A stretch of 28,186 nt of DNA from positions 294,717-322,902 of IMG/VR virus record IMGVR_UViG_3300035698_018106, one strand, 5' to 3'. The stretch comes from a virus. The position numbers and the translations under genes were made by a program. This document shows positions 1,271 through 27,668 of this stretch, in pieces (position 1 is the first letter of the stretch; the number at the start of each line of letters is the position of its first letter). Below the pieces are notes generated by a model, which was not told the origin of the DNA, ran no database searches, and worked only from the letters and a program-made list of their open reading frames with translations.

Positions 1271-1972
1271 TTAAATTTTAGTCTTTGGTATAAAATCTAA
1301 GATTAATCCAATATTAGCCATATTTGTTATATTCATATTTAATTCTCCTTCTTTAAGAATTTTTCTTAAATGTGTCACAAATACATCTAATGATCTACTT
1401 ACAAAATAATTAGATGTTTGCCACACTTTTTCTAATATGATATCTTTTTTAACTACTGTTGAGAAATTAGCAGCTAATAATTCAAATACACTAGCTTGTT
1501 TAGGCGATAATTGTTTAATAAGTATACCATTTTTAGATATAAGTCGTTTTGTTGGATCATATGTACAATCTCCAAATTCTATAATATCTCCCATCTTCGC
1601 TGTTAATCTAGCAAGTATTTCGAAATTATTATGATACATATATACATTATGTAACATAACACTTGCTAAATAATCTGTATCTGTTTCTTTAGTATAAGGA
1701 ATAATCATATCTGCAGATGATTTCTCATATTTTTCTAATCTAGATATTACAATTACTGGTATATAGTTGTAATATTTTTTTATAAATTCTATAACTTTAG
1801 GCGCATATTCTAAATCTCCATTTATTATATAGGCATCTGCTTTTTCATTGTCAATGGTATCCAATAAGGTTTTTTCAAATTTAACTATAGATATAGTATG
1901 ATTATCCTTTTTGGCTCCTCTAATGATAGAATTAAGAATTTTGTAATTTCCAGAGTTAACGGCTATTTTCAT
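1271..1972 (-). CDS. atypical OmpR/PhoB-family response-regulator-like transcription factor (winged-helix trans_reg_C domain plus a degenerate receiver-like N-domain)
   Basis: C-terminal 100 aa align position-by-position with the OmpR DNA-binding domain (FG...L..LSPKQASVFELLAAN....V.KD.ILEKVW.....S.RSLDVFVTHLRKIL.....I.....GL.LDF). The N-domain keeps the receiver S/T and K but replaces the acidic pocket (KILVVDDD becomes KIAVNSGN). Confidence 0.8.
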   Translation of the reverse strand: MKIAVNSGNYKILNSIIRGAKKDNHTISIVKFEKTLLDTIDNEKADAYIINGDLEYAPKVIEFIKKYYNYIPVIVISRLEKYEKSSADMIIPYTKETDTDYLASVMLHNVYMYHNNFEILARLTAKMGDIIEFGDCTYDPTKRLISKNGILIKQLSPKQASVFELLAANFSTVVKKDIILEKVWQTSNYFVSRSLDVFVTHLRKILKEGELNMNITNMANIGLILDFIPKTKI

Positions 1973-7490: not shown

Positions 7491-7552
7491 TAAGTAAATA
7501 TAACCATTTACATCAACAGTAAAAAATTTTAAATGTTAAAAAATGTTAATTA
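7491..7552 (-). promoter_or_regulatory. promoter cassette copy a (core + TGTTAA direct repeat)
   Basis: TAAATATAACCATTTAC...AAATGTTAAAAAATGTTAA; about 20 nt upstream of ATG 7472. Confidence 0.5.
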
Positions 7553-10120: not shown

Positions 10121-10190
10121 TTATAATAGTTAAATATAACCATTTACTATAAGAGTAAAAAATCTGAAATGTTAATAAATGTTAAAATTA
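10121..10190 (-). promoter_or_regulatory. promoter cassette copy b
   Basis: TAAATATAACCATTTACTATAAGAGTAAAAAATCTGAAATGTTAATAAATGTTAAAA. Confidence 0.5.
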
Positions 10191-10790: not shown

Positions 10791-10860
10791 TAATTATAGT
10801 ATAAATATAACCATTTACTTTAAGAGTAGAAAATATTAAATGTTAAAAAATGTTAAAATT
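10791..10860 (-). promoter_or_regulatory. promoter cassette copy c
   Basis: ATAAATATAACCATTTACTTTAAGAGTAGAAAATATTAAATGTTAAAAAATGTTAAAA; the stop of 10853-11794 sits inside the second TGTTAA. Confidence 0.5.
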
Positions 10861-11794
10861 CAATTTCTCCTACAATCGTTTTATTGCTCCATCCTCCAAT
10901 ATTAACAATTGAAGTTTCTAACTTACATCTAAAGTTTTCGTTTACAAACTCATATGCCTTGGAATTAATATTTTCTTTTGTATTTGCTAAGTATATACCA
11001 GTATGACTATCTTTTTGTATTATAATATCAGTTTCAACTGGATGAACATAGTGGAATGATAATTCAGGGGATGTTACAGGTATTTGATTGTTTTTATAGT
11101 AAGAAGAATTATAATTGCGATGATTTTTAGATTTATAAATCATTTCTTTAATTATTTCTTTATTATTAAATAGATTTGAATCATCATATAAATCTATTAA
11201 ATCTTTAATTCTTTTATTAGAAATAGGGAAAGATAAAATATCCCATAATTTACCTTCTTTACAAGCAAAAAAAGCACGCCGAGGTGTTTCTAATGTTAGA
11301 TGATAAGTATAATCATGATTGTATTTAACTATAATATTTTTTTGATACCAATTACCAAGATAAACCATTTCTAATCCATCTTTACATTGAGCACCTTTAT
11401 ACCAATGGCCAACTATGGCTTTAGAAATAGGAATAATATCACCCTTTTTATTTTCTAATTCTTCTTCTTTATAAAGAAGATCAATATATTCTGTATCTAA
11501 CGTCCTAATCAATTGCATTTGATGGTCAACAATATTTTCAACAAATGTAATTTCATCTTCAATTACACCATGTGTAATTGATAATCTAGTAAGTGGTAAT
11601 TGATCAAAATCTACCCAAATTTGTCTTGGTAAATATTCATGATCTATTAGAAATCCTAATTTACTATAATCAATAATTTTTAAACCTGCCATTGGTTCAT
11701 TATTAAAAGGTATTGTACCTTTACCACCAGACATTCTAATTCCGCTGCCAATGTAAGCTTTTTTAAGTAATTTTATACTACATGTATTTTCCAT
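10853..11794 (-). CDS. hypothetical protein (313 aa)
   Basis: longest ORF in the window, ATG start, preceded by a type-2 cassette (11798-11835). Confidence 0.55.
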   Translation of the reverse strand: MENTCSIKLLKKAYIGSGIRMSGGKGTIPFNNEPMAGLKIIDYSKLGFLIDHEYLPRQIWVDFDQLPLTRLSITHGVIEDEITFVENIVDHQMQLIRTLDTEYIDLLYKEEELENKKGDIIPISKAIVGHWYKGAQCKDGLEMVYLGNWYQKNIIVKYNHDYTYHLTLETPRRAFFACKEGKLWDILSFPISNKRIKDLIDLYDDSNLFNNKEIIKEMIYKSKNHRNYNSSYYKNNQIPVTSPELSFHYVHPVETDIIIQKDSHTGIYLANTKENINSKAYEFVNENFRCKLETSIVNIGGWSNKTIVGEIEF

Positions 11795-11797
11795 AAT

Positions 11798-11835
11798 TCA
11801 AATATAACCAAAATAAGTGGGATAAAAAATAATTA
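11798..11835 (-). promoter_or_regulatory. type-2 cassette (core + GGGATAAAAAA)
   Basis: AAATATAACCAAAATAAGTGGGATAAAAAATAAT upstream of ATG 11794; related copies at 26856-26890 and partly 22455-22490. Confidence 0.4.
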
Positions 11836-12270
11836 TTGTATAATTAAAGAATCTGTAAAAATATTATTATCTCCTGATGATGTTGTAATGGTTACATCAT
11901 CAGATTTTTTTATTTTAATTCTCTGTTTTTCTATTTCTTTAATACGTAATTTATATTTTAATATATTTGGAGTAAGACCTCCATATAATGTTAGTTCTAT
12001 AGGAACAAATCTTAATGAATCCCATATATGTTTAGTTGGTACTATATATTCTAAATATAAATCTGGATAATTTACTTTAAAATTAGCCAAACCATCAGGA
12101 ATTCTAGTATAATCACTGGAATAATACTTCCCATCATATTTATTAGCTAAAAATAAAGCAAAGGCTTTATTATATTTATCAACATACCTATAGCCTTGGT
12201 TATATTGTGTATTGTGTTCACATGAAACTAATAATAACAATGCTACAATAAAAATAATTAATTTTTTCAT
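11833..12270 (-). CDS. putative lipoprotein
   Basis: MKKLIIFIVALLLLVSC: n-region, h-region, lipobox LVSC; 4-nt overlap with the upstream gene. Confidence 0.5.
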   Translation of the reverse strand: MKKLIIFIVALLLLVSCEHNTQYNQGYRYVDKYNKAFALFLANKYDGKYYSSDYTRIPDGLANFKVNYPDLYLEYIVPTKHIWDSLRFVPIELTLYGGLTPNILKYKLRIKEIEKQRIKIKKSDDVTITTSSGDNNIFTDSLIIQ

Positions 12271-12872
12271 ATTTTATTTTTTTTAATGTCAAAATATTCT
12301 TCTGATAATACTTTTACTGGTTCGGTCACACCCATTACCCAAACTCCTGGTAATACATTTTCATCATATTTAAACCATTCTGGAGTTTCAATAACATCAT
12401 GAATAGTACCTTTAATTAAATTTTTAAATTCCAGAGAAAACCCTGTAAAATTTCCAATCATTATTTGATGACCGGTTTTTAAAGGGATATATGTTTTTCT
12501 ACATATAATATTAATGTCTTTATTTTCTAATTCCCCTTCATGTAGAAATATAATGTCATTTTCTGGATATTTATCTGAAACAATCTTCCTTATTTCTTTA
12601 TCATCATCATTAAAACGAGTTGTACTATCACCTATTTTATAAGGATTTGGACATTTTCCATCCTTATTATTAAGCATTCTAACTTCCTTTTTATTAGTTA
12701 AAATACGTTCAAGATCTTCGCCTTCAATAAGATTAGGTAAATCATTTTTAACTAGATCATACACACTTAGAGATGTTTCAATCTCAAATAATTTTACATA
12801 TACATGCATGGCATCGCTAGAATAACCAATCCATGATGTTAAATTTGCAATAATTTTTTTGGTATTATCCAT
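12267..12872 (-). CDS. hypothetical protein (201 aa)
   Basis: ATG start, unidirectional array. Confidence 0.5.
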   Translation of the reverse strand: MDNTKKIIANLTSWIGYSSDAMHVYVKLFEIETSLSVYDLVKNDLPNLIEGEDLERILTNKKEVRMLNNKDGKCPNPYKIGDSTTRFNDDDKEIRKIVSDKYPENDIIFLHEGELENKDINIICRKTYIPLKTGHQIMIGNFTGFSLEFKNLIKGTIHDVIETPEWFKYDENVLPGVWVMGVTEPVKVLSEEYFDIKKNKI

Positions 12873-12881
12873 GGATATTAT

Positions 12882-13310
12882 TTAAATATGAATATTTCCT
12901 ATTGGCTTACACGCGGAATATTCAGGATTAGCTATCTTAAAACATTCAAGATTTGAATTTGCATATAAAGTATTTTCTCCTCTCCAATCGCGTTTGTTAG
13001 TAGAGTTAACAAAGATTGCCTTTTCTACATTATTATTTTTAGCAATTACATCTTTAGACCTTTTAATAAGTCTTGTATATGTTGCTAATTCCTTTCGTTT
13101 TGTTGGTCCATGATTAGGAAATACTTCATTCATACCATATAACCATTCATCATTTGCCATTACTTCGGCTCTTGGATATTCTCCATCACTGATATCCATC
13201 GCATCTGATAATATCTTTCCATCTGGACAATTACCAACTTGAACATAAACGGCTATTTCTTCTCCTTTAAATGATTGTATTGCATATAATCTATATAAAT
13301 AAGCGCCCAT
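12882..13310 (-). CDS. hypothetical protein (142 aa)
   Basis: ATG start. Confidence 0.5.
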   Translation of the reverse strand: MGAYLYRLYAIQSFKGEEIAVYVQVGNCPDGKILSDAMDISDGEYPRAEVMANDEWLYGMNEVFPNHGPTKRKELATYTRLIKRSKDVIAKNNNVEKAIFVNSTNKRDWRGENTLYANSNLECFKIANPEYSACKPIGNIHI

Positions 13311-13314
13311 ATCT

Positions 13315-13656
13315 CTATTGTATTTTAATTAGTTTATAAATTAACATATCTTCTTTGATCATTTTATGTATTCTGTTTGTATCAGATAAAGGGATTGATA
13401 TATTATACCACACCTTCATAAATTTACCACTATCGTTAAAAAACATAATATCTACAGATTCTTTTATAATATTTTCTGTATCTGATATAATATTTACAGA
13501 TATATCGTCGTATAAATTAATACTTTGTATTTTATTATATGTATTTTCATTTTTATAAATATCATTAGTATACGCCGGAAATACAATAAGTATAAACAAA
13601 CTAATGGCTATTATAAGACTAAATACTGCTATAAAAAATTCTATTCTTCTATTCAT
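13315..13656 (-). CDS. membrane-anchored protein
   Basis: N-terminal FFIAVFSLIIAISLFILIVF hydrophobic anchor; 113 aa. Confidence 0.45.
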   Translation of the reverse strand: MNRRIEFFIAVFSLIIAISLFILIVFPAYTNDIYKNENTYNKIQSINLYDDISVNIISDTENIIKESVDIMFFNDSGKFMKVWYNISIPLSDTNRIHKMIKEDMLIYKLIKIQ

Positions 13657-13673
13657 TATTATATAATATGAAA

Positions 13674-14036
13674 TTATTTATGAATGTCAAACTTAATAGA
13701 CTGAATTTCGTTTAATTCTGTTTGCATATTATTTGTCTTAATATATAATGCTTTTTCATAGTGATGTGCTATATCAATAAAATATCTGCTTTCCATAAAT
13801 TCATTTAAATCAAATCTATATTCCAAACAACCAACTGCCTCATCAGATGTATTAGTATTAATAAAGTTACCAATACCGCCAACCCAAATACATGAATCTC
13901 CTGCCACCATACAAAATTCATTTTCAATTAATTTTGTAGCAATTGTTTCCCAACCTGGATATTCATCATTCTTAAAAAATTGGCTTAAAATGAAGCTTTT
14001 TTGATATTGTGTCAAAATATTTGTTTTAGTTTTCAT
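13674..14036 (-). CDS. hypothetical protein (120 aa)
   Basis: ATG start; 4-nt overlap with the upstream gene. Confidence 0.45.
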   Translation of the reverse strand: MKTKTNILTQYQKSFILSQFFKNDEYPGWETIATKLIENEFCMVAGDSCIWVGGIGNFINTNTSDEAVGCLEYRFDLNEFMESRYFIDIAHHYEKALYIKTNNMQTELNEIQSIKFDIHK

Positions 14037-14581
14037 GACTTATGATTTATAAATTTTTCTCCGTGATAATTAGTTACATAAATTTCTGGTATATAAGGTT
14101 TTCTCATTAAAAATGCTCCTGGCATTATTAAGTTCTTACTATCTACAAAATAATAAGAAGATGTTCTTTCATATACCATTGTAACTCCACCAAAATGATA
14201 ATTAAATGATCTATATTTTATTGATATGTTAAATTTATTATCAATCTCTACAAAAAATATCGGATACTTTTTGGTTCCGGCTTCATATACAAAGTTACCA
14301 TTTGAATCTTTACCTCTCCATGGAGATATCAGAAATGGTCTGATTGTACCATCTATATTAGGATAATGATACTTATTAAAAAAGAATTCATATGAATCAG
14401 AGTCACTAGAAAGATTAACAGCTATTTCTTGGTCAAGAAAATATTGTAATACTTCTTTTCTTAAAGGTTGATCTTTTTTCTCATGACTTAAGACTCCATA
14501 AAGCCATATAAGATATTCCATTGGAAGCGTATCCAATCTATCCCCTTTATATGTTCCCCATTTCATCTTATGATATTCCAT
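14033..14581 (-). CDS. hypothetical protein (182 aa)
   Basis: first gene after cassette copy d; ATG about 10 nt past the cassette. Confidence 0.5.
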   Translation of the reverse strand: MEYHKMKWGTYKGDRLDTLPMEYLIWLYGVLSHEKKDQPLRKEVLQYFLDQEIAVNLSSDSDSYEFFFNKYHYPNIDGTIRPFLISPWRGKDSNGNFVYEAGTKKYPIFFVEIDNKFNISIKYRSFNYHFGGVTMVYERTSSYYFVDSKNLIMPGAFLMRKPYIPEIYVTNYHGEKFINHKS

Positions 14582-14589
14582 ATATTTTT

Positions 14590-14658
14590 TAATTATAGTT
14601 AAATATAACCAAATTTACATTAAGAGAACAATTGCAAATGTTAATAAATGTTAATTGT
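14590..14658 (-). promoter_or_regulatory. promoter cassette copy d
   Basis: TAAATATAACCAAATTTACATTAAGAGAACAATTGCAAATGTTAATAAATGTTAA. Confidence 0.5.
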
Positions 14659-14686
14659 ATCACCTTTATTATATTTTCCTATAGAA

Positions 14687-14893
14687 TCAACAAACCATAT
14701 TGCATTTCCCCCCAATCCCATTTGTCTGTATATAATACCAACATAAGCCATCAGGTGTCCCATCTTTATTATTAATATTTTGAATGGTTATCATATCCGG
14801 TTTATTATTTACAGCATTATCACCAGAATTTCCTGGACCATAACAACTTGATAATAAAATCAATATTATGCTAATAGTTAATAATTTTTTCAT
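14687..14893 (-). CDS. putative small lipoprotein (68 aa from MKKLLTISIILILLSSC; the track starts 10 codons earlier at 14923)
   Basis: lipobox LSSC after an h-region; the 14893 ATG removes the 20-nt overlap with the upstream gene. Confidence 0.4.
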   Translation of the reverse strand: MKKLLTISIILILLSSCYGPGNSGDNAVNNKPDMITIQNINNKDGTPDGLCWYYIQTNGIGGKCNMVC

Positions 14894-14903
14894 AAGATTT
14901 GTT

Positions 14904-15236
14904 TTAAATTTGACTTCCATCATTAAATTCTTTTATTGCTTGATAGCTTATATCTTTTAATCTTTTTAGTAAATCTCCTTCAGGATTATCTATTTCATAT
15001 TCAACACCGCCTTTAATTAATGAAAAATATTTAACATCTCCACCTTGTATACACCATTGAATAATTGGATAATTATTATCTATACATTGATAATGTCCTT
15101 TCCCTTCCGGAACAGAAGAACACCAGATAAATCCGATTGAATCTTCTTCATCATAAGTATACTTTAAATTAAAAACATTTACTAAATGTTTAGATAATAT
15201 TACAGCAATTTGTGCATCAGTAGCTTTTGATTTCAT
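14904..15236 (-). CDS. hypothetical protein (110 aa)
   Basis: ATG start. Confidence 0.45.
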   Translation of the reverse strand: MKSKATDAQIAVILSKHLVNVFNLKYTYDEEDSIGFIWCSSVPEGKGHYQCIDNNYPIIQWCIQGGDVKYFSLIKGGVEYEIDNPEGDLLKRLKDISYQAIKEFNDGSQI

Positions 15237-15242
15237 AGTGGT

Positions 15243-15524
15243 TTATTTAATATTCATTCCTGTTATACAATCAGCCTCGCCAATCATAGAATATTTATCA
15301 TCCGCCCCTTGTAAGCTAATAATAAAATTATCTTTGGTATAAGTAGAGATTTTAAGAATCTCATAAGATTCTTCTTTTAATTGTTTAACTTTAAATACCT
15401 TTTGTGGCATAGCATAAGCATAATTATTTTTAATAGGTACTAATTTCTTACCTATGTAATTACCTTCAAATAATTCACCAATTGTAATTCCTGATGTAGC
15501 CCACTGTTTATTTTTCTTTGCCAT
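15243..15524 (-). CDS. hypothetical protein (93 aa)
   Basis: ATG start. Confidence 0.45.
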   Translation of the reverse strand: MAKKNKQWATSGITIGELFEGNYIGKKLVPIKNNYAYAMPQKVFKVKQLKEESYEILKISTYTKDNFIISLQGADDKYSMIGEADCITGMNIK

Positions 15525-15528
15525 AATA

Positions 15529-15693
15529 TTATGCTTTTCTAATTGCGTTTACTTTAGTATTTTCAAACTTTAATCCAAGTGGCGGGTGTATATATTCTTT
15601 AAACATTTTATTAACTATTCTTTCAATTTCTTCTGGGGGATAATTAATAAAAGCACTTACTGTTTCTATTTCTATTTTATAAACTGTTGCCAT
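15529..15693 (-). CDS. small protein (54 aa, MATVYKIEIETVSAFINYPPEEIERIVNKMFKEY...)
   Basis: hand-translated, below track cutoff; first ORF downstream of cassette copy e. Confidence 0.3.
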   Translation of the reverse strand: MATVYKIEIETVSAFINYPPEEIERIVNKMFKEYIHPPLGLKFENTKVNAIRKA

Positions 15694-15759
15694 AATAAAA
15701 TTTAATTTGAATACATATTATTAAATTGAATATTTCCATTAACAAATCTTTTTATTTAA

Positions 15760-15830
15760 ATTTGTAATAGTTAAATATAACCAAATTTACAATACTAGAA
15801 CAATTCTAAATGTTAAAAAATGTTAAACAT
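15760..15830 (-). promoter_or_regulatory. promoter cassette copy e
   Basis: TTAAATATAACCAAATTTACAATACTAGAACAATTCTAAATGTTAAAAAATGTTAAA. Confidence 0.5.
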
Positions 15831-16035
15831 CTTTCCATCGTATTCCGGATACTTCACCGAATATTAAATATTCTTTCTTTTTTTCACATACAACTTCGGC
15901 ACTATCTCTTCTGATATTTTGTATATCACCGTTGGGATGTGTTAACCATGTTTTATAATTAACACCTTCTGAACTTTGAAGTTTAGATCCTAATTTCAAA
16001 GCATTAGCTATCGATATTTGATAAGTTGTCATCAT
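15823..16035 (-). CDS. small hypothetical protein (70 aa)
   Basis: its TAA stop is supplied by the second TGTTAA of cassette e. Confidence 0.4.
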   Translation of the reverse strand: MMTTYQISIANALKLGSKLQSSEGVNYKTWLTHPNGDIQNIRRDSAEVVCEKKKEYLIFGEVSGIRWKDV

Positions 16036-16469
16036 GAAATATTTAGGTGGTTTTTATGACGTTTAATAAAAAGTGGGGTTAATGTTTCCATCATTTTTAA
16101 AGAAAGCTTATTCTTTGCATATAATAATTCAATTATATGCAATGGTATATCTCCGGCAGTAACAGATATTTGCCTATTTATCTCATCTTCAAACTTTTTT
16201 GCTTCTTTATTTTTAACTTTACTATTTTTGTGATTTTCTACTGCTACTCTTCCAGGTATTGATTCAACTATAGTCTGTTCAATTATATGAATATCATAAT
16301 CTGAAACAGTTGGTTGGTTTTTCAAATAAGATGGGGAATCATTAATAATGTTATCCAAGGCATTAGATGCCCAACTTAATGATTTCCAAATAGATTTTTT
16401 ACCAGTAGAATAATATTTATTATAACGAATATCCCATATTCTATATAATTTTTGTGTTTTGGTATTCAT
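16032..16469 (-). CDS. hypothetical protein (145 aa)
   Basis: ATG start. Confidence 0.45.
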   Translation of the reverse strand: MNTKTQKLYRIWDIRYNKYYSTGKKSIWKSLSWASNALDNIINDSPSYLKNQPTVSDYDIHIIEQTIVESIPGRVAVENHKNSKVKNKEAKKFEDEINRQISVTAGDIPLHIIELLYAKNKLSLKMMETLTPLFIKRHKNHLNIS

Positions 16470-16481
16470 TATATCGAATGT

Positions 16482-16760
16482 TTATTGTGTTAGTTTTTTT
16501 GGTCTTGTAACTAAAACCGTACCAAATTTCTTAATTAGAGTCATTTGAGTTTCAACCCATTTATTTGCGTTTTCCCAATCTAATTGAGTTGGCTCATTAT
16601 TACGATTTTTACCAAATGATTTCTCCATTACATTAAGCCATAATTCTGGAGATTGTCTGGATTGACTATATTTTTTACTTAAAATTTCTGCATGGACTTG
16701 CCCATGGTAAGGAGAAATTTGAGCAGTATACTCTTCGTTTTCTTTATTTCCTGTCCACAT
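16482..16760 (-). CDS. hypothetical protein (92 aa)
   Basis: ATG start. Confidence 0.45.
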   Translation of the reverse strand: MWTGNKENEEYTAQISPYHGQVHAEILSKKYSQSRQSPELWLNVMEKSFGKNRNNEPTQLDWENANKWVETQMTLIKKFGTVLVTRPKKLTQ

Positions 16761-16764
16761 ATTA

Positions 16765-16950
16765 TTATGATTTAATTATTTCTTCAGAAGATATTAGTTT
16801 CTCTAACAAATATCCTAATTTACCAAATGCTTGTTGAGCTTCAACAAGAGCCTCAACTTCATTGTTACAACCTTCAATTGTCACTGTATGATATAAACCG
16901 GTTTTATTTCCAAATTCTTCTTTAACTCTATGTGTTATTTTAAAATCCAT
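16765..16950 (-). CDS. small hypothetical protein (61 aa)
   Basis: ATG start; abuts the downstream gene. Confidence 0.4.
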   Translation of the reverse strand: MDFKITHRVKEEFGNKTGLYHTVTIEGCNNEVEALVEAQQAFGKLGYLLEKLISSEEIIKS

Positions 16951-17438
16951 TATATTCTTATTGAATTAATTCTGGGTAAACAACATTTTTTATATTTAAG
17001 GTTCGAACCACAAATACATTTATCATTTCGACCTATATCACGATATTTATCTAATTCGATTTTATCTTCTTCCCTCTTTTTTCTTGCTTCGTTACAACGT
17101 TTCTCTCTTTCGAGACGTTTTTCAGCTTCAATACTAATCATTCCAGCATCACTTTCAATTATCTCATCATTATATCCAGGAGGATTTGACATATCATCCA
17201 TTAATTCTTGAAGAGGATTTCTAGCTGTCATTTGTATAAAAGCATCTAATACATTAGTTTGTTTTGATTTCCACCTCTTTTGTTGAGCTTCTAATTTATC
17301 TATAGGTATATCCTTAAGAAATATTTTAGTGTAATTAGTGTCACAAGATAAACATTTTAAATTAGGTTTTGATCCGTCATGTAATTCAAAATCATTACAT
17401 GTTTTACACCATACTCTTCTTAATGTCCTTGTTGGCAT
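16950..17438 (-). CDS. zinc-ribbon / SEC-C-motif protein
   Basis: N-terminal CKTC...CLSC ribbon; C-terminal RNDKCICGSNLKYKKCC matches the SEC-C metal-binding motif (CxCGSGKKYKxCC). Confidence 0.55.
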   Translation of the reverse strand: MPTRTLRRVWCKTCNDFELHDGSKPNLKCLSCDTNYTKIFLKDIPIDKLEAQQKRWKSKQTNVLDAFIQMTARNPLQELMDDMSNPPGYNDEIIESDAGMISIEAEKRLEREKRCNEARKKREEDKIELDKYRDIGRNDKCICGSNLKYKKCCLPRINSIRI

Positions 17439-17442
17439 ATTT

Positions 17443-17616
17443 TTAATTATTTTGTTTTAAAATTGCAACTTCTTCACTTAAATCTTGCATTTCACGAGCC
17501 ATAGACTTTTCTTCAATATTTGATAGAATATAACCATCTCTATTTCCATTCAATACTTTATTAAGTCTGGATATTGTAGCTTCTTTTTCTATAATATTTT
17601 TATCTAAAGATGTCAT
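17443..17616 (-). CDS. small coiled-coil protein (57 aa, MTSLDKNIIEKEATISRLNKVLNGNRDGYILSNIEEKSMAREMQDLSEEVAILKQNN)
   Basis: hand-translated, below track cutoff; first ORF after cassette copy f. Confidence 0.3.
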   Translation of the reverse strand: MTSLDKNIIEKEATISRLNKVLNGNRDGYILSNIEEKSMAREMQDLSEEVAILKQNN

Positions 17617-17625
17617 ATTGTATAA

Positions 17626-17697
17626 TTTTTAATTTAGATAAAAATAACCAATTTTACTTATTAAGAACAATATTAAATGTTAATAAATGTTAAAATG
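17626..17697 (-). promoter_or_regulatory. promoter cassette copy f (core variant AAAAATAACCAATTTTAC)
   Basis: ...TTAAGAACAATATTAAATGTTAATAAATGTTAAAA. Confidence 0.45.
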
Positions 17698-17704
17698 ACT
17701 TAAT

Positions 17705-18010
17705 TTAATCGATAAAATCTTCAACATTTTTAAGTTGGTATTCAAGATCTTCAATTTTTTCTAATAATTCTTTTTTCTCTTTTTCTAAATCATCACGCTC
17801 ATCTTCCATTTCACTGGCTCTAACTGCTTCTTCATTTCCAAATGTTCGCAAATCACTATTAGCTTGTCTAATTTCTTCTAATTTTTTTTCTATACTATCT
17901 TCATCATAATAAGCAATTCTATCCCAATCAGCACAACGTATAGCATCTATAACATAGTTTATTAATGGACAGGTATTACTTACGTTTGTATGGTCTATAT
18001 CTCTTGACAT
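17705..18010 (-). CDS. acidic coiled-coil protein (101 aa)
   Basis: ATG start; EE/KK-rich heptad-like sequence. Confidence 0.45.
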   Translation of the reverse strand: MSRDIDHTNVSNTCPLINYVIDAIRCADWDRIAYYDEDSIEKKLEEIRQANSDLRTFGNEEAVRASEMEDERDDLEKEKKELLEKIEDLEYQLKNVEDFID

Positions 18011-18021
18011 AAATCTATTTA

Positions 18022-18408
18022 TTATAAATAAGTATCATCAATATATTTCTTTTTTAATCTAATCCAATCCAACCGATCTTTTTCTTCTTTTTCAGTTTTT
18101 CTTTCTTCTTTTTTCTTTTCTTCTGCACGAATTAATTCAGCTTTTCGTTTTAATATTATATCACCAAAATACTTTTCAAAAAACTCAATAGGCTCATTGA
18201 TATCAGTTTTAACGATATCAAATCCTCCAAAATTTTCTCCACAACCAGTTAAATTATTTGATGTTGATACATAAATCAGATTGTTATCAATCTCATAATT
18301 ATCCATTGTCATACCCGTTCGGTTAATACTGGCATGAATTTCAGAAATTGACCATAGCTTTTCATGCAATTCAATATCGATTTTTTCGTATAATGCAATG
18401 TTTATCAT
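18022..18408 (-). CDS. hypothetical protein (128 aa from the first ATG; the track's 18483 start is a TTG inside cassette g)
   Basis: the track N-terminus translates the promoter cassette; ATG 18406-18408 lies about 45 nt past the core. Confidence 0.45.
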   Translation of the reverse strand: MINIALYEKIDIELHEKLWSISEIHASINRTGMTMDNYEIDNNLIYVSTSNNLTGCGENFGGFDIVKTDINEPIEFFEKYFGDIILKRKAELIRAEEKKKEERKTEKEEKDRLDWIRLKKKYIDDTYL

Positions 18409-18444
18409 ATTAATATATTTTAAATGGTTTTGCAAATATTTTTT

Positions 18445-18508
18445 AGTTAAGTAAATATATCCAATTTTACTTAATAAGAACAATATTAAATGTTAAAAAA
18501 TGTTAATT
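18445..18508 (-). promoter_or_regulatory. promoter cassette copy g (core variant TAAATATATCCAATTTTAC)
   Basis: ...TAATAAGAACAATATTAAATGTTAAAAAATGTTAA. Confidence 0.45.
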
Positions 18509-18733
18509 ATAAAATTGTTTTTGCATATGGACATGTCCTCTTCCAATACCAACAAGAAATTTCATATGTTTAGAAGACACTGAGCCATACTCTTGTCCAT
18601 CTATTAACATTGTTAATATACCAATCCCATCTAAAAAATTAATGATATCTTGTTTCAAATTACATCTTATCTCTTTTTTACCAAGAGAAAACGAACCATT
18701 ATTTTTATTAAAGAAACCAATTTTCTTCCCCAT
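18503..18733 (-). CDS. hypothetical protein (76 aa from MGKKIGFF; the track's 18760 start is a TTG)
   Basis: its TAA stop is supplied by the second TGTTAA of cassette g. Confidence 0.4.
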   Translation of the reverse strand: MGKKIGFFNKNNGSFSLGKKEIRCNLKQDIINFLDGIGILTMLIDGQEYGSVSSKHMKFLVGIGRGHVHMQKQFYN

Positions 18734-18806
18734 TATAGTGTGGTTTAAGGTATTAATCAATATAAATTTTCAAAACGTTTAAGAATTGGTGCATTCTATC
18801 ATTATA

Positions 18807-19055
18807 TTAAACTACTTTAATACGTTTGCCACAACTACATATCAATTCTTGCTTCACTTCATTAAAAACATAATTACCCTTCCCGCAGTCACATAATGAT
18901 ACTTCACCATTCTCATTATCTCCTTTTATAATTGCGTTGGATATCTTATAATAATCATCTCTATCTAAATATTCTATTATCTCTCCATCTGATAATGTAC
19001 CAAATTTAGAAAAGATTCCAAAAATTTCATGAATATCAACATCGTCTAATTTCAT
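18807..19055 (-). CDS. small zinc-ribbon-like protein
   Basis: C-terminal CDCGKG...CSCGKR pairs; 82 aa. Confidence 0.4.
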   Translation of the reverse strand: MKLDDVDIHEIFGIFSKFGTLSDGEIIEYLDRDDYYKISNAIIKGDNENGEVSLCDCGKGNYVFNEVKQELICSCGKRIKVV

Positions 19056-19378
19056 ACTTTATTTTTTAATATAGTTATTCCCCATTCTTCATCTTCATAA
19101 AGAAAATTAAACTTATCTGTTATAGAATGAGTACACATAAAATTAGTATACACTTTACCTTCATTTATACACTTTTGAATATCCTCTAATTCCGACTTTC
19201 CAAAATCTTCAGATTCTCCATAAAATGTAAAAGTATCAATATATTTGTCAAATATAAACCATCCACCTCCAGATACTTTCTCTTTATCAAAAGCTAATTC
19301 TTTATGATAATTACACTTGCCTATAATCAAATTTCCATCCTCTATAATAAACTTTGAAAATAATTCTGTTATGTCCAT
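19052..19378 (-). CDS. hypothetical protein (108 aa)
   Basis: first gene after cassette copy h. Confidence 0.45.
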   Translation of the reverse strand: MDITELFSKFIIEDGNLIIGKCNYHKELAFDKEKVSGGGWFIFDKYIDTFTFYGESEDFGKSELEDIQKCINEGKVYTNFMCTHSITDKFNFLYEDEEWGITILKNKV

Positions 19379-19391
19379 ATATTTTTTTATT

Positions 19392-19455
19392 TAGTTAAAT
19401 ATAACCAAATTTACTATAAGAGAACAATTTTAAATGTTAAAAAATGTTAAAAATT
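19392..19455 (-). promoter_or_regulatory. promoter cassette copy h
   Basis: TTAAATATAACCAAATTTACTATAAGAGAACAATTTTAAATGTTAAAAAATGTTAAAA. Confidence 0.5.
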
Positions 19456-20271
19456 AGTATATTGTTTAAGGGCAGCTTTAATAGTATCCATTGAAAAAGA
19501 CTTTCCATCAATCTCAATACTTGTATCACTTCTATTAACAACTTCTTCTGATGTTATTTTCTTAAATAAACTATTATTAACATAACATATTGTATTTTCA
19601 TTATAATGAAGTGCTAATGCGCAAATATTGTTAGTTTGATTCTTAACATACTTAATTGATGTAGGTGATTGAGTAATAGCTGCCATACAAATTTCTTCAG
19701 ATTGTTGTTTAACATATTGTAACATCTGTCCATTTATCTTTACTGCTACTAAACAAACTTTATCAAAATGTATATGAATATACTTTAATGCCGTAGGTGA
19801 TTGAGTAACTGCAACCATACAAATTCTAAGTGATTGATTTCTAACATATTGTACTGCATTCCCATTTTGTTCAACTGCTGCTAAACATATCTCCTCAGTT
19901 TGCTGATGTACTAAACATAATAGTAATCCATCTTGTTTAACGGCGGCCAAACAATTATCAAGTGTTTGTATAATAACATACTTAAAAGCATTACTATTTT
20001 GTTTAATAGCTTCTAAACAAATCTCTTCAGTTTGTTTCTTTACATATTGTAAAGCATTTGTATCTTTTCTAACAGCTGCTAAACAAATCTCTTCAGTTTG
20101 CTCATCTACAAACGTCAATGCTCCGCTATTCGTCAGAACAGCCATCATAGCCTCTCCACCAGTCAAATCACATTTTGGACCAGCATATATATAATGCTTA
20201 TCTCTATAATTTTTTAAGTGCTTAGGGCAATTTCTATTAAAAGTATCTTGCAAATGAGTTTGTTTTAACAT
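19447..20271 (-). CDS. 22-aa tandem-repeat protein (DUF4116-like), paralog 1
   Basis: about 9 repeats of EQTEEICLAAV[KR]QNG.ALQYVK plus the conserved tail IEIDGKSFSMDTIKAALKQYTNF; its stop lies inside cassette h. Confidence 0.6.
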   Translation of the reverse strand: MLKQTHLQDTFNRNCPKHLKNYRDKHYIYAGPKCDLTGGEAMMAVLTNSGALTFVDEQTEEICLAAVRKDTNALQYVKKQTEEICLEAIKQNSNAFKYVIIQTLDNCLAAVKQDGLLLCLVHQQTEEICLAAVEQNGNAVQYVRNQSLRICMVAVTQSPTALKYIHIHFDKVCLVAVKINGQMLQYVKQQSEEICMAAITQSPTSIKYVKNQTNNICALALHYNENTICYVNNSLFKKITSEEVVNRSDTSIEIDGKSFSMDTIKAALKQYTNF

Positions 20272-20288
20272 ATCTTTTTATTTAATTT

Positions 20289-20618
20289 TTAAATTAACAC
20301 AAAAGCTAAACATTTTTCAGCTAATGGTAAAAGCTCTTCTAAATGTGGTAATCTATATGAATAATAATTACATTCGTTACCATTAAATTTCTTTATTTCG
20401 TTCTTATATGTATTAAGCAATGTCTCTATATTTTCAATATAAGTTGTTAATGCATCTATTACAGCATCAATATGACTATCACATTTAAATTTTTGATTTG
20501 TTGATGATGTTAAAAAATCAATACTAACTTTTGCCCCATACCTACTAAAGGTAGATTTTATAACAATACTATCTTTAGAAGAATGCTTACTCAAAATTTC
20601 AACTATTTTTTCTATCAT
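20289..20618 (-). CDS. hypothetical protein (109 aa)
   Basis: first gene after cassette copy i. Confidence 0.45.
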   Translation of the reverse strand: MIEKIVEILSKHSSKDSIVIKSTFSRYGAKVSIDFLTSSTNQKFKCDSHIDAVIDALTTYIENIETLLNTYKNEIKKFNGNECNYYSYRLPHLEELLPLAEKCLAFVLI

Positions 20619-20627
20619 AATTTTATA

Positions 20628-20698
20628 ATTTTATAATAGTTAAATATAACCAAATTTACTATAAGAGAACAATATTAAATGTTAAAAAATGTTAAAAA
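20628..20698 (-). promoter_or_regulatory. promoter cassette copy i
   Basis: TTAAATATAACCAAATTTACTATAAGAGAACAATATTAAATGTTAAAAAATGTTAAAA (near-identical to h). Confidence 0.5.
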
Positions 20699-21309
20699 CT
20701 AATATATTGCTTAAGTGCAGCTTTAATAGTATCCTTTGAAAAAGTCTTACCATCAATCTCAATCTCATTATTTTCTTCTTTAAACATATCTTCCTTTACA
20801 TATTGTAATGCACGCACATCTTGTTTAACAGCTTCTAAACATATCTCTTCAGTTTGCTCATTAACATAACGTAAAGCATGACCATTTTGTCTAACAGCTT
20901 TTAAACATATCTCTGGAGTTTGTTCTAATACATATTGTAATACAAATCCATTTTGTTTAATTGCTACTAAACACATCTCTTCAGTTTGCTCTTTTACATA
21001 TTGTAATGCATCCCCATCTTGTTTAACTGCTTCTAAACATATCGCTTCAGTTTGCTCTTTAACATAACGTAATGCATGACCATTTTGTTTAACTCCTGCT
21101 AAACATATCTCTGGTGTTTGCACCCTTACATACTGTAATGCATGACCTTTTTGTCTAACTGCTTCTAAACATATCTTTTCAGTTTGCTCATTAACATAAT
21201 GTAATACATAACCATCTTCTCTAACAGCTTCTAACGCTGCATCACCAGTTAAATTACATTTATCTTCTAACTTATCATAATCACTTTTATAATCTTTCAA
21301 ATCTTTCAT
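20692..21309 (-). CDS. 22-aa tandem-repeat protein (DUF4116-like), paralog 2 (start at MKDLKDYKSDYDKL; the track's 21333 start is a TTG)
   Basis: about 8 repeats and the tail IEIDGKTFSKDTIKAALKQYISF; the N-terminus matches paralog 3; its stop lies inside cassette i. Confidence 0.6.
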   Translation of the reverse strand: MKDLKDYKSDYDKLEDKCNLTGDAALEAVREDGYVLHYVNEQTEKICLEAVRQKGHALQYVRVQTPEICLAGVKQNGHALRYVKEQTEAICLEAVKQDGDALQYVKEQTEEMCLVAIKQNGFVLQYVLEQTPEICLKAVRQNGHALRYVNEQTEEICLEAVKQDVRALQYVKEDMFKEENNEIEIDGKTFSKDTIKAALKQYISF

Positions 21310-21360
21310 TATCCTTTTTTTCATTATATTCAAATATATCTATAATCTATCACAATATAA

Positions 21361-21387
21361 AATCTAAAATGTTAAAAGATGTTATAG
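21361..21387 (-). promoter_or_regulatory. partial cassette (direct repeat only, core replaced)
   Basis: AAAATGTTAAAAGATGTTATAG upstream of paralog 2; abuts the G-free island arm. Confidence 0.3.
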
Positions 21388-21603
21388 ATATCTCTTTACT
21401 CATCTCGTACACCCACTCTAACACCCTCTCAATCTCTCACTCTTCTACTTATATTACTACATCTCACTCTATATCATTCACTGTATTTCACTAAACTAAC
21501 TCTTCTAACTCCCTTACCCTCTCTCACATATTCCCTAACCTCGCGAGCTTCCCTACATTATCACAATAATTATTTTTATAATATAACATATAATATAAAC
21601 TAT

Positions 21604-21825
21604 CTAATAAATCTCTTCAAACTTACACTCTAATACAACATCAGAACTCTTTAAAAACTCTCTCATCTTATCATAACTATAAGATATCTTATATACAACT
21701 CTATTCATACCCTTACTTGCAATAAACCCTATAGTACACATCTTCTCAGGATCCCAATCATAATATCTCTCTATCAAACATCCATCTATCACTAACATAC
21801 TATCATTATACTCTATTATCTTCAT
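21604..21825 (-). CDS. small hypothetical protein in the G-depleted island arm
   Basis: 73 aa ORF with ATG start; its coding strand is C-poor. Confidence 0.35.
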   Translation of the reverse strand: MKIIEYNDSMLVIDGCLIERYYDWDPEKMCTIGFIASKGMNRVVYKISYSYDKMREFLKSSDVVLECKFEEIY

Positions 21826-22056
21826 AACCTTAAATTTTTTTATATTTTCTATATCTCTTTAATATTAATAATATATACAAATCACAAATAAATTCTAAAC
21901 AAATCACAAACAAATCCCTACAAAGTAATCCTGTCAGGGCTCAAACCTAATCAATCAAAACGGCGCGCCTCTATCTCGAAACTGCTGTCACCTTGAGATA
22001 GTTACAGATATATAATTTCGAGTATAAGATTCTCCCTGTTTCGCCCTGAGACATAT

Positions 22057-22077
22057 AATGTAACATATGTTACAAAA
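22057..22077. repeat. 21-bp element AATGTAACATATGTTACAAAA containing a 16-bp perfect palindrome, copy 1
   Basis: exact repeat of 22112-22132. Confidence 0.6.
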
Positions 22078-22111
22078 TTTACCTTATACGAACTGTGGGA
22101 ATGGTATTAAG

Positions 22112-22132
22112 AATGTAACATATGTTACAAAA
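22112..22132. repeat. 21-bp element AATGTAACATATGTTACAAAA, copy 2 (overlaps the stop codon of 22125-22379)
   Basis: exact repeat of 22057-22077, 55 bp apart. Confidence 0.6.
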
Positions 22133-22379
22133 AGTTGATAAGAACCATATTATCTTTAGGAACTGAGTAGATTTCAATTGTATTAGAAAGAAGTTTGCAA
22201 TCAAGGATTCGGTATATGAGAGTAAAGTATTTTTGAGGGACTGTTATTTCCATTGTAGAGTAAGTAGTCCAGCATATATCGATATCTGATTTGTTTATGA
22301 ACTCGTTAGTATTTTGATATACCAGATTAATGAGTTCATTTTGCAAGTTCATTATATTATTGATATCTTTGTAGTCCAT
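22125..22379 (-). CDS. hypothetical protein in the C-depleted island arm (84 aa from MDYKD; the track's 22469 start is a TTG inside the promoter core)
   Basis: the track start is the TTG of ATTTGGTTATATTT; the first ATG is 22377-22379; the stop overlaps a 16-bp perfect palindrome. Confidence 0.35.
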   Translation of the reverse strand: MDYKDINNIMNLQNELINLVYQNTNEFINKSDIDICWTTYSTMEITVPQKYFTLIYRILDCKLLSNTIEIYSVPKDNMVLINFL

Positions 22380-22454
22380 TAGTTGGTGGATTATTTTTTC
22401 ATTTTGATTATTTAGATTAATACTGAGATTAAATGTTTTATTTTTATTAGTCAG

Positions 22455-22490
22455 TATAAATATAACCAAAATAATATAGTTAGGGCAATT
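22455..22490 (-). promoter_or_regulatory. core-only cassette variant (type-2-like)
   Basis: AAATATAACCAAAATAATATAGTTAGGGCAA upstream of 22125-22379. Confidence 0.3.
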
Positions 22491-23094
22491 AATGTGTGAT
22501 TAAATTAGATTTAATTTTATTTAGTTGTTTTAAAGTTATAGTTTTTGCGTTAGCTGTATATTCTTTGCGTATTAATATTTTTTGAGATTCTGGAAGTGTG
22601 TGATATGTTTCGCGTACACCGTGGTGGTATTTAACTATAGTAGATTCTTTCCACATAGTAGCTTTGAGGATATTATAGTATAGAGTTGAGATTATTTTCT
22701 TTTCAATTTTTGATAGGTTATATATTTGGTGTGTATTGCTCCATTTAACTAGTTTTTTATATGATAGAGGGAATTTATATTTTTCAAGTAGGTAGTTGAT
22801 AGTATGTGTGTGTGTAGTAAAGAAAGATATAGTATTGAGTTTTCTTGATTTGTTTCTTTGATTGTTGTATTTAGATTGGAGTTGTATATATTTTTCTTTA
22901 TTATTTTTTATATAGGTTTTAGTATAAGCTGCATCTTTAGCTTTATTGAGAGGGTTTGTTCTTCTTTTTTTAGTTTGTTCTTTGCTACAAAGTGAGCATC
23001 GAATTATATCTTTTTTTCCATAGTTGTAGATGTTATGGATAGTAATTACATTATGTTCAGAACAAAATTTAGATATTGTATTTATTTTAGCCAC
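22489..23094 (-). CDS. hypothetical Cys-cluster protein (N-terminal CSEHN...RCSLC), GTG start
   Basis: 201 aa ORF with GTG start (cac 23092-23094) and no in-frame ATG for about 150 codons; plus strand is almost C-free here. Confidence 0.4.
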   Translation of the reverse strand: MAKINTISKFCSEHNVITIHNIYNYGKKDIIRCSLCSKEQTKKRRTNPLNKAKDAAYTKTYIKNNKEKYIQLQSKYNNQRNKSRKLNTISFFTTHTHTINYLLEKYKFPLSYKKLVKWSNTHQIYNLSKIEKKIISTLYYNILKATMWKESTIVKYHHGVRETYHTLPESQKILIRKEYTANAKTITLKQLNKIKSNLITH

Positions 23095-23210
23095 AATTAA
23101 TTATTTAGAGGGTGCACGACTGATTAAATTTAGTATTAAAGATATAAGATAATATGTATATGATATATGAGTTGAAGAGATGATTGATAGAGTGATTGAG
23201 AGATATGATA

Positions 23211-23420
23211 TTAGTTAGTAGGTTGTTCCCAATCGATAGTACCTGTGATTACGAATTCTGTTTGGCAGTTATCGCAAGTCATTTCGGCGTAAGTTGTAGT
23301 ATCAAGAGAGTACATTGATTTGGTATCTTGTATAGATTTGTTTGTATTAGGGTTAGGTAGATAGATTGATGGGTTACCTGTTGCTCTTGTTTTGGTTGAA
23401 TTACAGTTTGGACATTTCAT
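23211..23420 (-). CDS. small zinc-ribbon protein
   Basis: CPNC...CDNC pairs; 69 aa. Confidence 0.4.
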   Translation of the reverse strand: MKCPNCNSTKTRATGNPSIYLPNPNTNKSIQDTKSMYSLDTTTYAEMTCDNCQTEFVITGTIDWEQPTN

Positions 23421-23532
23421 AGTAGTTTATAATATATATTTATAATTTAAGTGACACTGAGTTGAGTGTTAAATGAATGTTATAGTAATATACATAAAAC
23501 ATTGGAATAACACTCAGATAACATTCGAGTGA

Positions 23533-23718
23533 TTAGTCGATGTAGTAAGTAACTGTTGTTTCAGAGATAACATTGAAATGTTTTCTACAATGAGGGCATT
23601 GAACTAGTTCAGTAAAATCTTTGATGTTATCTTGTTTGATAGTTATGCCGCCTTGACAGTGTTTGCAATAGAGGTCAAGAGTTTCATCAGATTTAGATTT
23701 AGAAAGGATGAGGTTCAT
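23533..23718 (-). CDS. small zinc-ribbon protein
   Basis: CKHC...CPHC pairs; 61 aa. Confidence 0.4.
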   Translation of the reverse strand: MNLILSKSKSDETLDLYCKHCQGGITIKQDNIKDFTELVQCPHCRKHFNVISETTVTYYID

Positions 23719-23723
23719 ATATT

Positions 23724-24248
23724 TTAGTTTTTAAGTTTAAATATTGTTTCATCGATATCAACAGATACAACTTCAAGACCTAGCATATTGACAATACATG
23801 AGTAGTATTTAGGTCTTCTAACAAAATCAACAAGAGCTTCATTATGTTCAGAACAGAATCCATGGAATATATTAACGAATCCTAGGAAGATATCATGATG
23901 AGGATCGAGTTGATGATCATTTCTGATATCAGAAAGCATGTTTAATACTTTAGTTTCTATATTAATTTTGCGTTCCGGATTAATATTGTTTAATGTAAAT
24001 ACATGTGATATAGTAATATGATTATAGTTAACATTGGCCATAGAATAAGACTCTATATTTTCAAGAGATTCTCCGTTATAGAGTTTAAAGTAAGCTCTAC
24101 AGTAGAGGTTATCTTCTAATTTATAGATTTTATGAGATACCCCATTATAGTGTGCAGTGCAATTAGGGTATAGATGTTTAAGATATCTAACAGTTTTACA
24201 ATCTCTTAATTCTTTAGAGATAATTATATTGATTTCTATTTCTTTCAT
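23724..24248 (-). CDS. hypothetical protein (174 aa)
   Basis: first gene after degenerate cassette k (AGTTAA-N4-AGTTAA). Confidence 0.45.
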   Translation of the reverse strand: MKEIEINIIISKELRDCKTVRYLKHLYPNCTAHYNGVSHKIYKLEDNLYCRAYFKLYNGESLENIESYSMANVNYNHITISHVFTLNNINPERKINIETKVLNMLSDIRNDHQLDPHHDIFLGFVNIFHGFCSEHNEALVDFVRRPKYYSCIVNMLGLEVVSVDIDETIFKLKN

Positions 24249-24267
24249 ATTTTTGAATTTGTATATT

Positions 24268-24326
24268 GTAAATATAATTAATATTACTATAACAGAAAAA
24301 TATTAAAAGTTAAATAAAGTTAAAAT
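24268..24326 (-). promoter_or_regulatory. degenerate cassette k (AGTTAA-N4-AGTTAA)
   Basis: AAATATAATTAATATTACTATAACAGAAAAATATTAAAAGTTAAATAAAGTTAAAA. Confidence 0.35.
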
Positions 24327-25310: not shown

Positions 25311-25380
25311 ATTTATAATAGTTAAATATAACCAAATAGGTTGATAATAAAAAATATTAAATGTTAAAAGATGTTAAAAA
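25311..25380 (-). promoter_or_regulatory. promoter cassette copy l
   Basis: TTAAATATAACCAAATAGG...AAAAAATATTAAATGTTAAAAGATGTTAAAA. Confidence 0.45.
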
Positions 25381-26334: not shown

Positions 26335-26403
26335 ATTTATAATAGTTAAATATAACTAATTTTACTATAAGAGAGCAATGTTAAATGTTAAAAGTTGTTA
26401 AAT
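26335..26403 (-). promoter_or_regulatory. promoter cassette copy m
   Basis: TTAAATATAACTAATTTTACTATAAGAGAGCAATGTTAAATGTTAAAAGTTGTTAAA. Confidence 0.45.
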
Positions 26404-27604: not shown

Positions 27605-27668
27605 AAGATAAATATAACCATTTGCTTTAACAGTAAAAAATATTAAATGTTAAAATATGTTAAATGTT
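27605..27668 (-). promoter_or_regulatory. promoter cassette copy n
   Basis: ATAAATATAACCATTTGCTTTAACAGTAAAAAATATTAAATGTTAAAATATGTTAAA. Confidence 0.45.

Follow-up and report, generated by a model that had tools for sequence, protein, structure and literature searches.

Why should genes that are unrelated to one another end on the same short repeat? The question is raised by a stretch of viral DNA of 28,186 nucleotides (nt), hereafter the window (IMG/VR record IMGVR_UViG_3300035698_018106, positions 294,717 to 322,902), in which a cassette of ~75 bp is present in 14 copies, 12 strict and two degenerate, all on one strand and all followed by a start codon. The head of the cassette is a direct repeat that appears as a double TGTTAA on the plus strand and reads TTAACA-N4-TTAACA on the minus strand, which is the coding strand, and at several copies the TAA within the first of these hexamers is also the stop codon of the gene before it. 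An original prediction, made from the DNA letters without database searches, took the overlap to mean that genes and promoters had been duplicated as units. We propose that it is probably a by-product of genome compaction around a TAA-containing promoter of the host type, with coding sequence being excluded from the promoter.

Read on the coding strand, the cassette runs from TTAACA-N4-TTAACA, in about half of the copies by way of a TTG, to the sequence TATATTTA and an A-rich leader that has no Shine-Dalgarno sequence and leads to the ATG, and its consensus can be written as T-TTAACA-TTTT-TTAACA-TTTAATATTGTTCTCTTATAGTAAATTTGG-TTATATTTAAC-TAT.ATAAATTTAAAA..ATG. A pattern of 16 positions resembling TGTTAANNNNTGTTAA is found 23 times in the window, where 5.6 occurrences are expected, and the strict copies are all on one strand. 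When the 14 copies are aligned, the invariant columns are TAAC and TTAAC in the two hexamers together with TTT, ATT, and T..TAT.TTT, and ahead of the first hexamer, which is the one distal to the start codon, conservation breaks down. The geometry is equally rigid among 95 dereplicated cassettes of the wider family. Here the -7 box, which reads TATATTTA in the window, begins at index 47 from the first hexamer in 81 cases, the ATG follows at a modal distance of 26-28 nt past this box, and the leader of ~20-30 nt is rich in A. The hexamers, including their C, are invariant across the family and the spacers are variable, the period of the repeat being 10 bp. Since TATATTTA is taken as a -7 box with TTG ~21 nt upstream of it, the hexamers fall at about -60 to -45. 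Such a cassette stands before every one to seven genes. It contains three TAA triplets in the window, at +1, +11, and +18 from the distal hexamer and each in a different frame, and the third of them is not conserved in the family, as index 19 is A in only 53 of the 95 cassettes.

Stop codons were located on the minus strand from a listing of open reading frames (ORFs) and with a frame-by-frame script. The original prediction had counted by hand six stops within the second TGTTAA or directly next to it, and all six turned out to lie exactly where it had placed them, each being the TAA of T-TAA-CA in the distal hexamer (cassettes c, e, g, h, i, and k; Table 1). Among the other eight copies, cassette a has a stop that adjoins the hexamer, and at b, d, f, j, l, m, and n the upstream gene ends 11-160 nt before it. 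Of the stop offsets from the distal hexamer, +1 occurs six times in the window and -3 once, while +11 and +18 do not occur. The same offsets were determined for a dereplicated set of 98 cassettes, drawn from the window and from 55 related contigs; for 84 of the cassettes an ORF of 50 codons or more lies within 400 nt upstream. In this set 23-24 stops are at +1 on the distal TAA, three are at +11 on the proximal TAA, and none is at +18, while 24 are at -10 to -3 and the rest are further upstream. A usage of 24:3:0 departs strongly from equal use of three fixed TAAs (binomial test of +1 against 1/3, p=3e-9). Several relatives have stops on the TAA of a third, upstream copy of TTAACA, which gives offsets of -8/-7. 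The junction is also present in an isolate with an independent GenBank annotation, Tenacibaculum phage Larrie, where the distal TAA ends a coding sequence at two cassettes and the proximal TAA does so at a further one.

Table 1. Features of the window. Cassettes are lettered a-n; DUF4116 genes are named after the cassette that follows them.
Feature	Position	Strand	Remarks
Winged-helix gene, OmpR/PhoB type	1271..1972	-	Divergent receiver-like N-terminus, Trans_reg_C domain; candidate binder of the repeat
Cassette a	7495..7549	-	Distal TTAACA starts at 7549, TATATTTA at low end; stop of gene 7550-7894 at 7550-7552, offset -3, directly adjacent
Cassette b	10131..10185	-	Preceded by hairpin 10205-10228 and T-run; no gene stop in repeat
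Cassette c	10802..10856	-	Stop of 313-aa gene 10853-11794 is TAA 10853-10855 in distal TTAACA
Cassette d	14600..14654	-	Lipoprotein-like gene 14687-14923 ends ~33 nt before repeat
Cassette e	15772..15826	-	Stop of 70-aa gene 15823-16035 is distal TAA (15823-15825)
Cassette f	17639..17693	-	Gene 17705-18010 ends 11 nt before repeat
Cassette g	18452..18506	-	Stop of 85-aa gene 18503-18760 is distal TAA (18503-18505)
Cassette h	19396..19450	-	Stop of DUF4116 gene 19447-20271 (274 aa) is distal TAA (19447-19449)
Cassette i	20641..20695	-	Stop of DUF4116 gene 20692-21333 (213 aa) is distal TAA (20692-20694)
Cassette j	21331..21385	-	Degenerate, TATAACA-TCTT-TTAACA, -7 box TATATTTG; putative promoter of DUF4116 gene i; homologous to l
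Cassette k	24269..24323	-	Degenerate, hexamers TTAACT; stop of DUF4116 gene 24320-25294 (324 aa) is distal TAA (24320-24322)
Cassette l	25323..25377	-	Putative promoter of DUF4116 gene k; upstream gene ends ~155 nt before
Cassette m	26347..26401	-	Upstream gene ends ~125 nt before; 60 nt upstream weakly resemble a DUF4116 tail (40/60)
Cassette n	27609..27663	-	Decayed C-terminal tail of DUF4116 in the 60 nt upstream (47/60 vs gene i); present DUF4116 ORF (27734-28066+) stops ~70 nt earlier
DUF4116 genes	19447-20271, 20692-21333, 24320-25294, 27734-28186	-	Pfam match

The protein ends that result from this overlap carry the imprint of the cassette. Position -1 relative to the repeat is T in 82 of the 95 cassettes and position -2 is T or A in 85, and because of this T/A-T at -2/-1 the last codon of the upstream gene is mostly TTT or ATT and a C-terminal Phe or Ile is frequent. 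A conserved junction of F followed by the stop had been predicted for the window, and it is seen at four of the six copies (c, h, i, and k), the protein at e ending in V and that at g in N. Of the 24 proteins whose genes have their stop at +1, 10 end in F, 5 in N, and 3 in L.

We suggest that the stops fall in the repeat because spacer DNA is nearly nil and the hexamer contains a TAA. Essentially no DNA would separate a gene from the next promoter, and an upstream gene that happens to be in frame with the first TAA of the hexamer would use it as its stop, whereas genes in the other two frames would end on stops of their own 3-10 nt upstream, often on the TAA of a third TTAACA copy, and would almost never reach further into the repeat, as selection would keep coding sequence out of the promoter. 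The three TAAs could also be read as the purpose of the arrangement, that is, as a module selected to end translation in any frame before the promoter begins, which would allow insertion of the cassette behind any gene and would make the overlap itself functional. The triplets do span all three frames in the window, and the stops that use the extra TTAACA copy in several relatives would be of the same kind, but the second and third TAAs are hardly used, the third is not kept across the family, and a period of 10 bp automatically places two TAAs in different frames. We regard a selected stop module as highly improbable.

If the junction had instead been inherited, as the original prediction held, a gene and its downstream terminator/promoter cassette would have spread together by recombination between cassettes, and no convergence would be involved. 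The DUF4116 paralogues bear this out. When the window was compared with itself, similarity in this set was unbroken from the coding part of the gene, across the cassette behind it, as far as the next ATG, and for genes i and k it also covered the upstream cassettes j and l. The surroundings of h and i, described as near-identical over more than 100 bp, are roughly so, with 121 of 135 positions (90%) matching from -60 to +74 and 98 of 106 (92%) from -45 to +60, and the decayed DUF4116 tail upstream of cassette n, now out of frame, is a further trace of such an event. Hence promoter, DUF4116 gene, and next promoter appear to have been duplicated as whole units, for which unequal recombination between the flanking 75-bp cassettes is a plausible route, and it is here only that duplication of units finds support. 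At c, e, g, and all other pairs outside DUF4116, similarity ends 0-3 nt from the distal TTAACA and the upstream proteins are unrelated, which confines similarity across the gene-cassette junction to h, i, k, and n. Nor do orthologues keep the same junction in related genomes. The gene that ends at 10853 retains its +1 junction in a distant relative (L143), but in another (L173) its orthologue sits elsewhere and is followed directly by a different gene with no cassette, and the gene that ends at 7550, with its stop at -3 in the window, has an orthologue in L173 whose stop is at +11 and one in L178 that is followed by no cassette. Gains and losses of genes between relatives are found at cassettes and also within transcription units, at a distance from any cassette. 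The module would also be short of one of its parts, since no terminator was seen within the window copies. As a general account of the junction, the spread of gene-plus-cassette units is in our view quite improbable, and we retain compaction.

The sole terminator-like hairpin on the coding strand, followed by a T-run, lies just upstream of cassette b, and an identification of the cassette as a terminator was accordingly rejected. With no terminator in the cassettes, transcripts that start at one of them probably run through the next. It had also been predicted that occupancy of the repeat by a transcription factor would overlap translation termination of the upstream gene, but a repeat-bound protein sits on DNA and termination takes place on mRNA, and no direct interference between them is expected. 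The realistic interaction is that read-through transcription from upstream crosses an occupied promoter. In five related contigs (L166, L173, L174, L149, and L191) a perfect GC-rich hairpin with a T-run lies between the TTAACA repeat and the -7 box, an example being GCCCAAGTTGGGC-TTTTTTT on the minus strand of L166 at 2000-2053; this arrangement is terminator-like and is not found in the window copies.

The cassette itself appears to be a complete promoter of the host type, in which the sigma-A (-33/-7) architecture of the Bacteroidota is combined with a phased direct repeat. The sigma-A -7 box of these bacteria is TAnnTTTG and is reported at -12 to -5 (PMC9723704). The window sequence TATATTTA matches it, and other phages and host loci have TAnnTTTG proper at this index of the cassette. 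Other identities were considered and rejected. A sigma-70 reading, in which the proximal TTAACA would be a -35 box followed after 16 nt by TATAGT as the -10 box, fits five window copies only and involves a region that is not conserved in the family; a scan for sigma-70 promoters in general gave 156 matches against 154.6 in shuffled sequences, which is not above expectation. Sites for integration host factor and replication iterons were dismissed on sequence and on distribution, there being one copy before each transcription unit. A second class of promoter, with the same GGTTATATTTA box and leader as the cassettes and without the TTAACA repeat, is present at 22440-22475 on the minus strand and in L149, L151, L170, L175, and L191; in the relatives TTTTTTATCCCAA often precedes it, and in some cases it stands back-to-back with a promoter of the TTAACA type. 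Because the family also has core promoters from which the repeat is missing, the latter can be regarded as a separable upstream module.

How far the architecture extends beyond the window was established with scans for DNA patterns, which is how the relatives were obtained; scans of IMG/VR that were seeded with proteins, namely the winged-helix protein listed in Table 1 and the 313-aa protein, found no relatives. A metagenome scan with the full cassette returned 51 contigs, many of them with multiple copies and several syntenic with the window at 40-70% amino-acid identity. When IMG/VR was scanned with the repeat only, leaving the -7 box out of the pattern, TAnnTTTG was found 30 times in the 140 nt downstream and 6 times in the 140 nt upstream, and its downstream peak is at index 47, with 6 occurrences there. 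Among isolates, such promoters, with TTAACA-N5-TTAACA, number at least 13 in Tenacibaculum phage Larrie, an unrelated phage of the Flavobacteriia. In a scan of one genome per prokaryotic species there were 16 matches, 11 of them in Bacteroidota. Four orthologous loci in genomes with 56% G+C, upstream of a MoxR-type AAA ATPase gene, appear from their sequences to be the clearest chromosomal example of the element, in that the repeat is invariant and neighbouring bases vary. These loci (L134, L140, L141, and L142) come from metagenome-assembled genomes (MAGs) of Bacteroidales/Bacteroidaceae and from an unclassified bacterial MAG, and in all four an invariant TTAACATTTTTTAACATTT stands 47 nt upstream of TATATTTG. 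Cassettes also turned up on short contigs assigned to other lineages, L137 and L143 (JAHWHN01, 'Candidatus Woesearchaeota' MAG MP5_1_678) and L146 ('Izemoplasmatales' MAG), which carry phage cassettes and orthologues of window genes; these are phage fragments that were mis-binned into archaeal or Mollicutes-like genomes. A search of the literature on TTAACA/TGTTAA direct repeats, on UP elements in Bacteroidetes, and on promoter motifs of Cellulophaga phages yielded no description of this element.

Because the same repeat with the same geometry is present in unrelated phages and in host chromosomes, we favour a component of the host as its reader, which may be the C-terminal domain of the alpha subunit of RNA polymerase (alpha-CTD), for which the repeat would be a UP-like element, or a host factor that is conserved. 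The window does encode a candidate of its own, the winged-helix protein of the OmpR/PhoB type, and the TTAACA repeats might be operator or activator sites through which it switches the cassettes on or off during infection, a proposal that is compatible with compaction. Effector domains of the OmpR/PhoB type bind direct repeats with a period of 10-11 bp. The protein has a Trans_reg_C domain, its closest solved relatives include PhoB, ArlR, and KdpE, and its gene is preceded by a TTAACA-N5-TTAACA variant at 2048-2064. It has 55 full-length metagenomic homologues at 39-63% identity, on phage contigs of up to 140 kb, several of which bear cassettes, and the invariance of the hexamers next to variable spacers, as well as the core promoters that lack the repeat and suggest a separable regulatory module, would suit a site of this kind. 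Against it stands the fact that unrelated phages and Bacteroidota chromosomes have this repeat too, with an unchanged spacing to the -7 box; moreover, no homologue was found in any isolated phage (tblastn, E<=1e-5), although Larrie is rich in the repeats, and two more distant phages that do encode a homologue (L199 and L201) have N5 variants but no strict N4 cassettes in the 20 kb examined. A phage-encoded regulator of the repeats is to our mind rather unlikely. The winged-helix gene always has the small-gene region on one side and, on the other, a block of NUDIX, AAA, 5'-3' exonuclease, and RlaP genes.

We tentatively suggest that TTAACA-N4/5-TTAACA exactly 47 (±2) nt before the -7 box could be an undescribed upstream element of Flavobacteriia/Bacteroidota chromosomes and of many of their phages, in which the built-in TAAs are routinely co-opted as stops. 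It could be read by the alpha-CTD of the host RNA polymerase, with a lineage-specific sequence preference, or by a conserved PhoB-like factor that a phage family of ~140 kb has copied as an orphan winged-helix regulator.

The host assignment on which these arguments draw comes from several sides. The window has a G+C content of 26%, and its ORFs are almost all small, close-packed, and on the minus strand. Few of them have a Pfam match, and these include four DUF4116 repeat proteins, a SEC-C motif protein, AAA/kinase-like proteins, a LigD_N-like phosphoesterase, and the winged-helix protein. A Shine-Dalgarno-like motif precedes only two of 65 genes, and positions -3 and -11 to -13 are enriched in A, a pattern that fits translation initiation in Bacteroidetes (PMC6847099). 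Related phages encode PorP_SprF, CHU_C, and SprB, and the best matches over the length of the cassette among isolated phages are in phages of Chryseobacterium, Tenacibaculum, Riemerella, and Cellulophaga. Given the rarity of Shine-Dalgarno motifs, the type of -7 box, the PorP_SprF, CHU_C, and SprB genes of the relatives, and these matches in isolates, the host would belong to the Bacteroidota, most likely to the Flavobacteriia. The window looks like part of an early-type small-gene region of a large uncultured lytic phage. A megablast comparison of 12 kb of the window with isolated phages gave no match, nor did tblastn with the winged-helix and LigD_N-like proteins, and the AAA protein has only weak matches, to Bacteroides phages DAC19/20/22. 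Searches of the window for tRNA, tmRNA, and Rfam families were without matches.

The array of cassettes does not stop at the right end of the window, as a related contig (L174, Ga0222688_1000827) overlaps 27801-28186, extends ~6 kb further, and has at least six additional cassettes, which makes the promoter-rich region longer than 34 kb. The window also includes a non-coding tract at ~21390-22060 that is strongly G-rich on the coding minus strand (plus-strand GC skew -0.62), within which ~21960-22060 is GC-rich and possibly structured and has no match in Rfam. The GC skew changes sign across 22-24 kb, where ORFs at 22125-23094 have an odd composition and no cassette. Two perfect copies of a 16-bp palindrome, TGTAACATATGTTACA, are situated 55 bp apart in non-coding DNA at 22059-22074 and 22114-22129, where 0.04 would be expected by chance; they look like operators for a dimeric repressor.

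A number of points weigh against compaction around a host-type promoter. The promoter function and early timing that we infer for the cassettes have their support in position and direction, the copies being always in front of an ATG and always co-directional. The -33 TTG is present in only about half of the cassettes, 7 of 14 in the window, and index 25 is G in 47 and T in 48 of the 95 family cassettes; in 13 of the 14 window copies the -7 box closes with A where the consensus has G. The UP element known from E. coli rrnB P1 is A/T-rich, extends from -40 to -60, and consists of two subsites ~10 bp apart that are read through the minor groove with no strict base identity. A sequence-specific hexamer with a strictly conserved C and variable spacers is atypical for a classical element of this sort. 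As for the stops, dereplication at ~10% divergence leaves some shared ancestry among the junctions that were counted, and the share of +1 among the tight junctions (24 of 51) somewhat exceeds the one third that compaction by itself would predict. An additional force, such as microhomology-mediated insertion of cassettes at TAA stops, may contribute to this excess. Compaction nevertheless remains the explanation that we prefer.

The overlap illustrates how far compaction of a phage genome can go, and it carries a warning for annotation, since the end of a gene and the start of the next promoter have bases in common, and a C-terminal Phe or Ile that recurs would be imposed by the promoter rather than reflect the function of the protein. 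As a rigid and searchable promoter signature, the cassette can be used to mark transcription units and early regions in uncultured phages of Flavobacteriia, and it suggests that the Bacteroidota have an upstream element of phased TTAACA repeats.

In terms of known systems, the cassette would be a new example of a familiar kind of thing, the repeated phage promoter of the early type, and it is the upstream TTAACA repeat that appears to be undescribed. With the Bacteroidota sigma-A promoter it shares a TAnnTTTG-like box at a fixed place before an A-rich leader that lacks a Shine-Dalgarno sequence and, in about half of the copies, a TTG ~21 nt upstream of that box, and it differs in its two invariant TTAACA hexamers, which are not in the described consensus. 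The middle promoters that have been mapped for the host RNA polymerase in Cellulophaga phage phi14:2 display, upstream of g070, g075, and g108, an A-tract, TTG, and TAnnTTTG (bioRxiv 10.1101/2020.03.07.982082). The TTG and TAnnTTTG blocks are common to these and to the cassettes, but the phi14:2 promoters have no TTAACA repeats and were rejected as instances of the same element. Early promoters of the T4 type are numerous, strong, and nearly identical, and they stand in one orientation before small early genes, abutting or overlapping the 3' ends of the preceding genes. The cassettes resemble such arrays in being co-oriented and nearly identical, in preceding small genes, and in abutting or overlapping the 3' ends upstream, and they resemble the UP element in the position and 10-bp phasing of their repeat; they belong to another host lineage and have another core consensus. 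A further parallel is with the PhoP boxes of Bacillus subtilis, which are TT(A/T/C)ACA repeats with a period of ~11 bp. The repeats of the cassettes do not replace the -33 element, and the host genes that have the architecture (those for a MoxR-type ATPase, dnaA, rnpA, pgi, and transketolase) do not resemble a phosphate regulon. What the two have in common are direct repeats of TTAACA, with a period of 10 bp in the cassettes and 11 bp in Larrie and before the winged-helix gene of the window, their location upstream of the core promoter, and a gene of the PhoB family in the phage whose product is a candidate to bind them.

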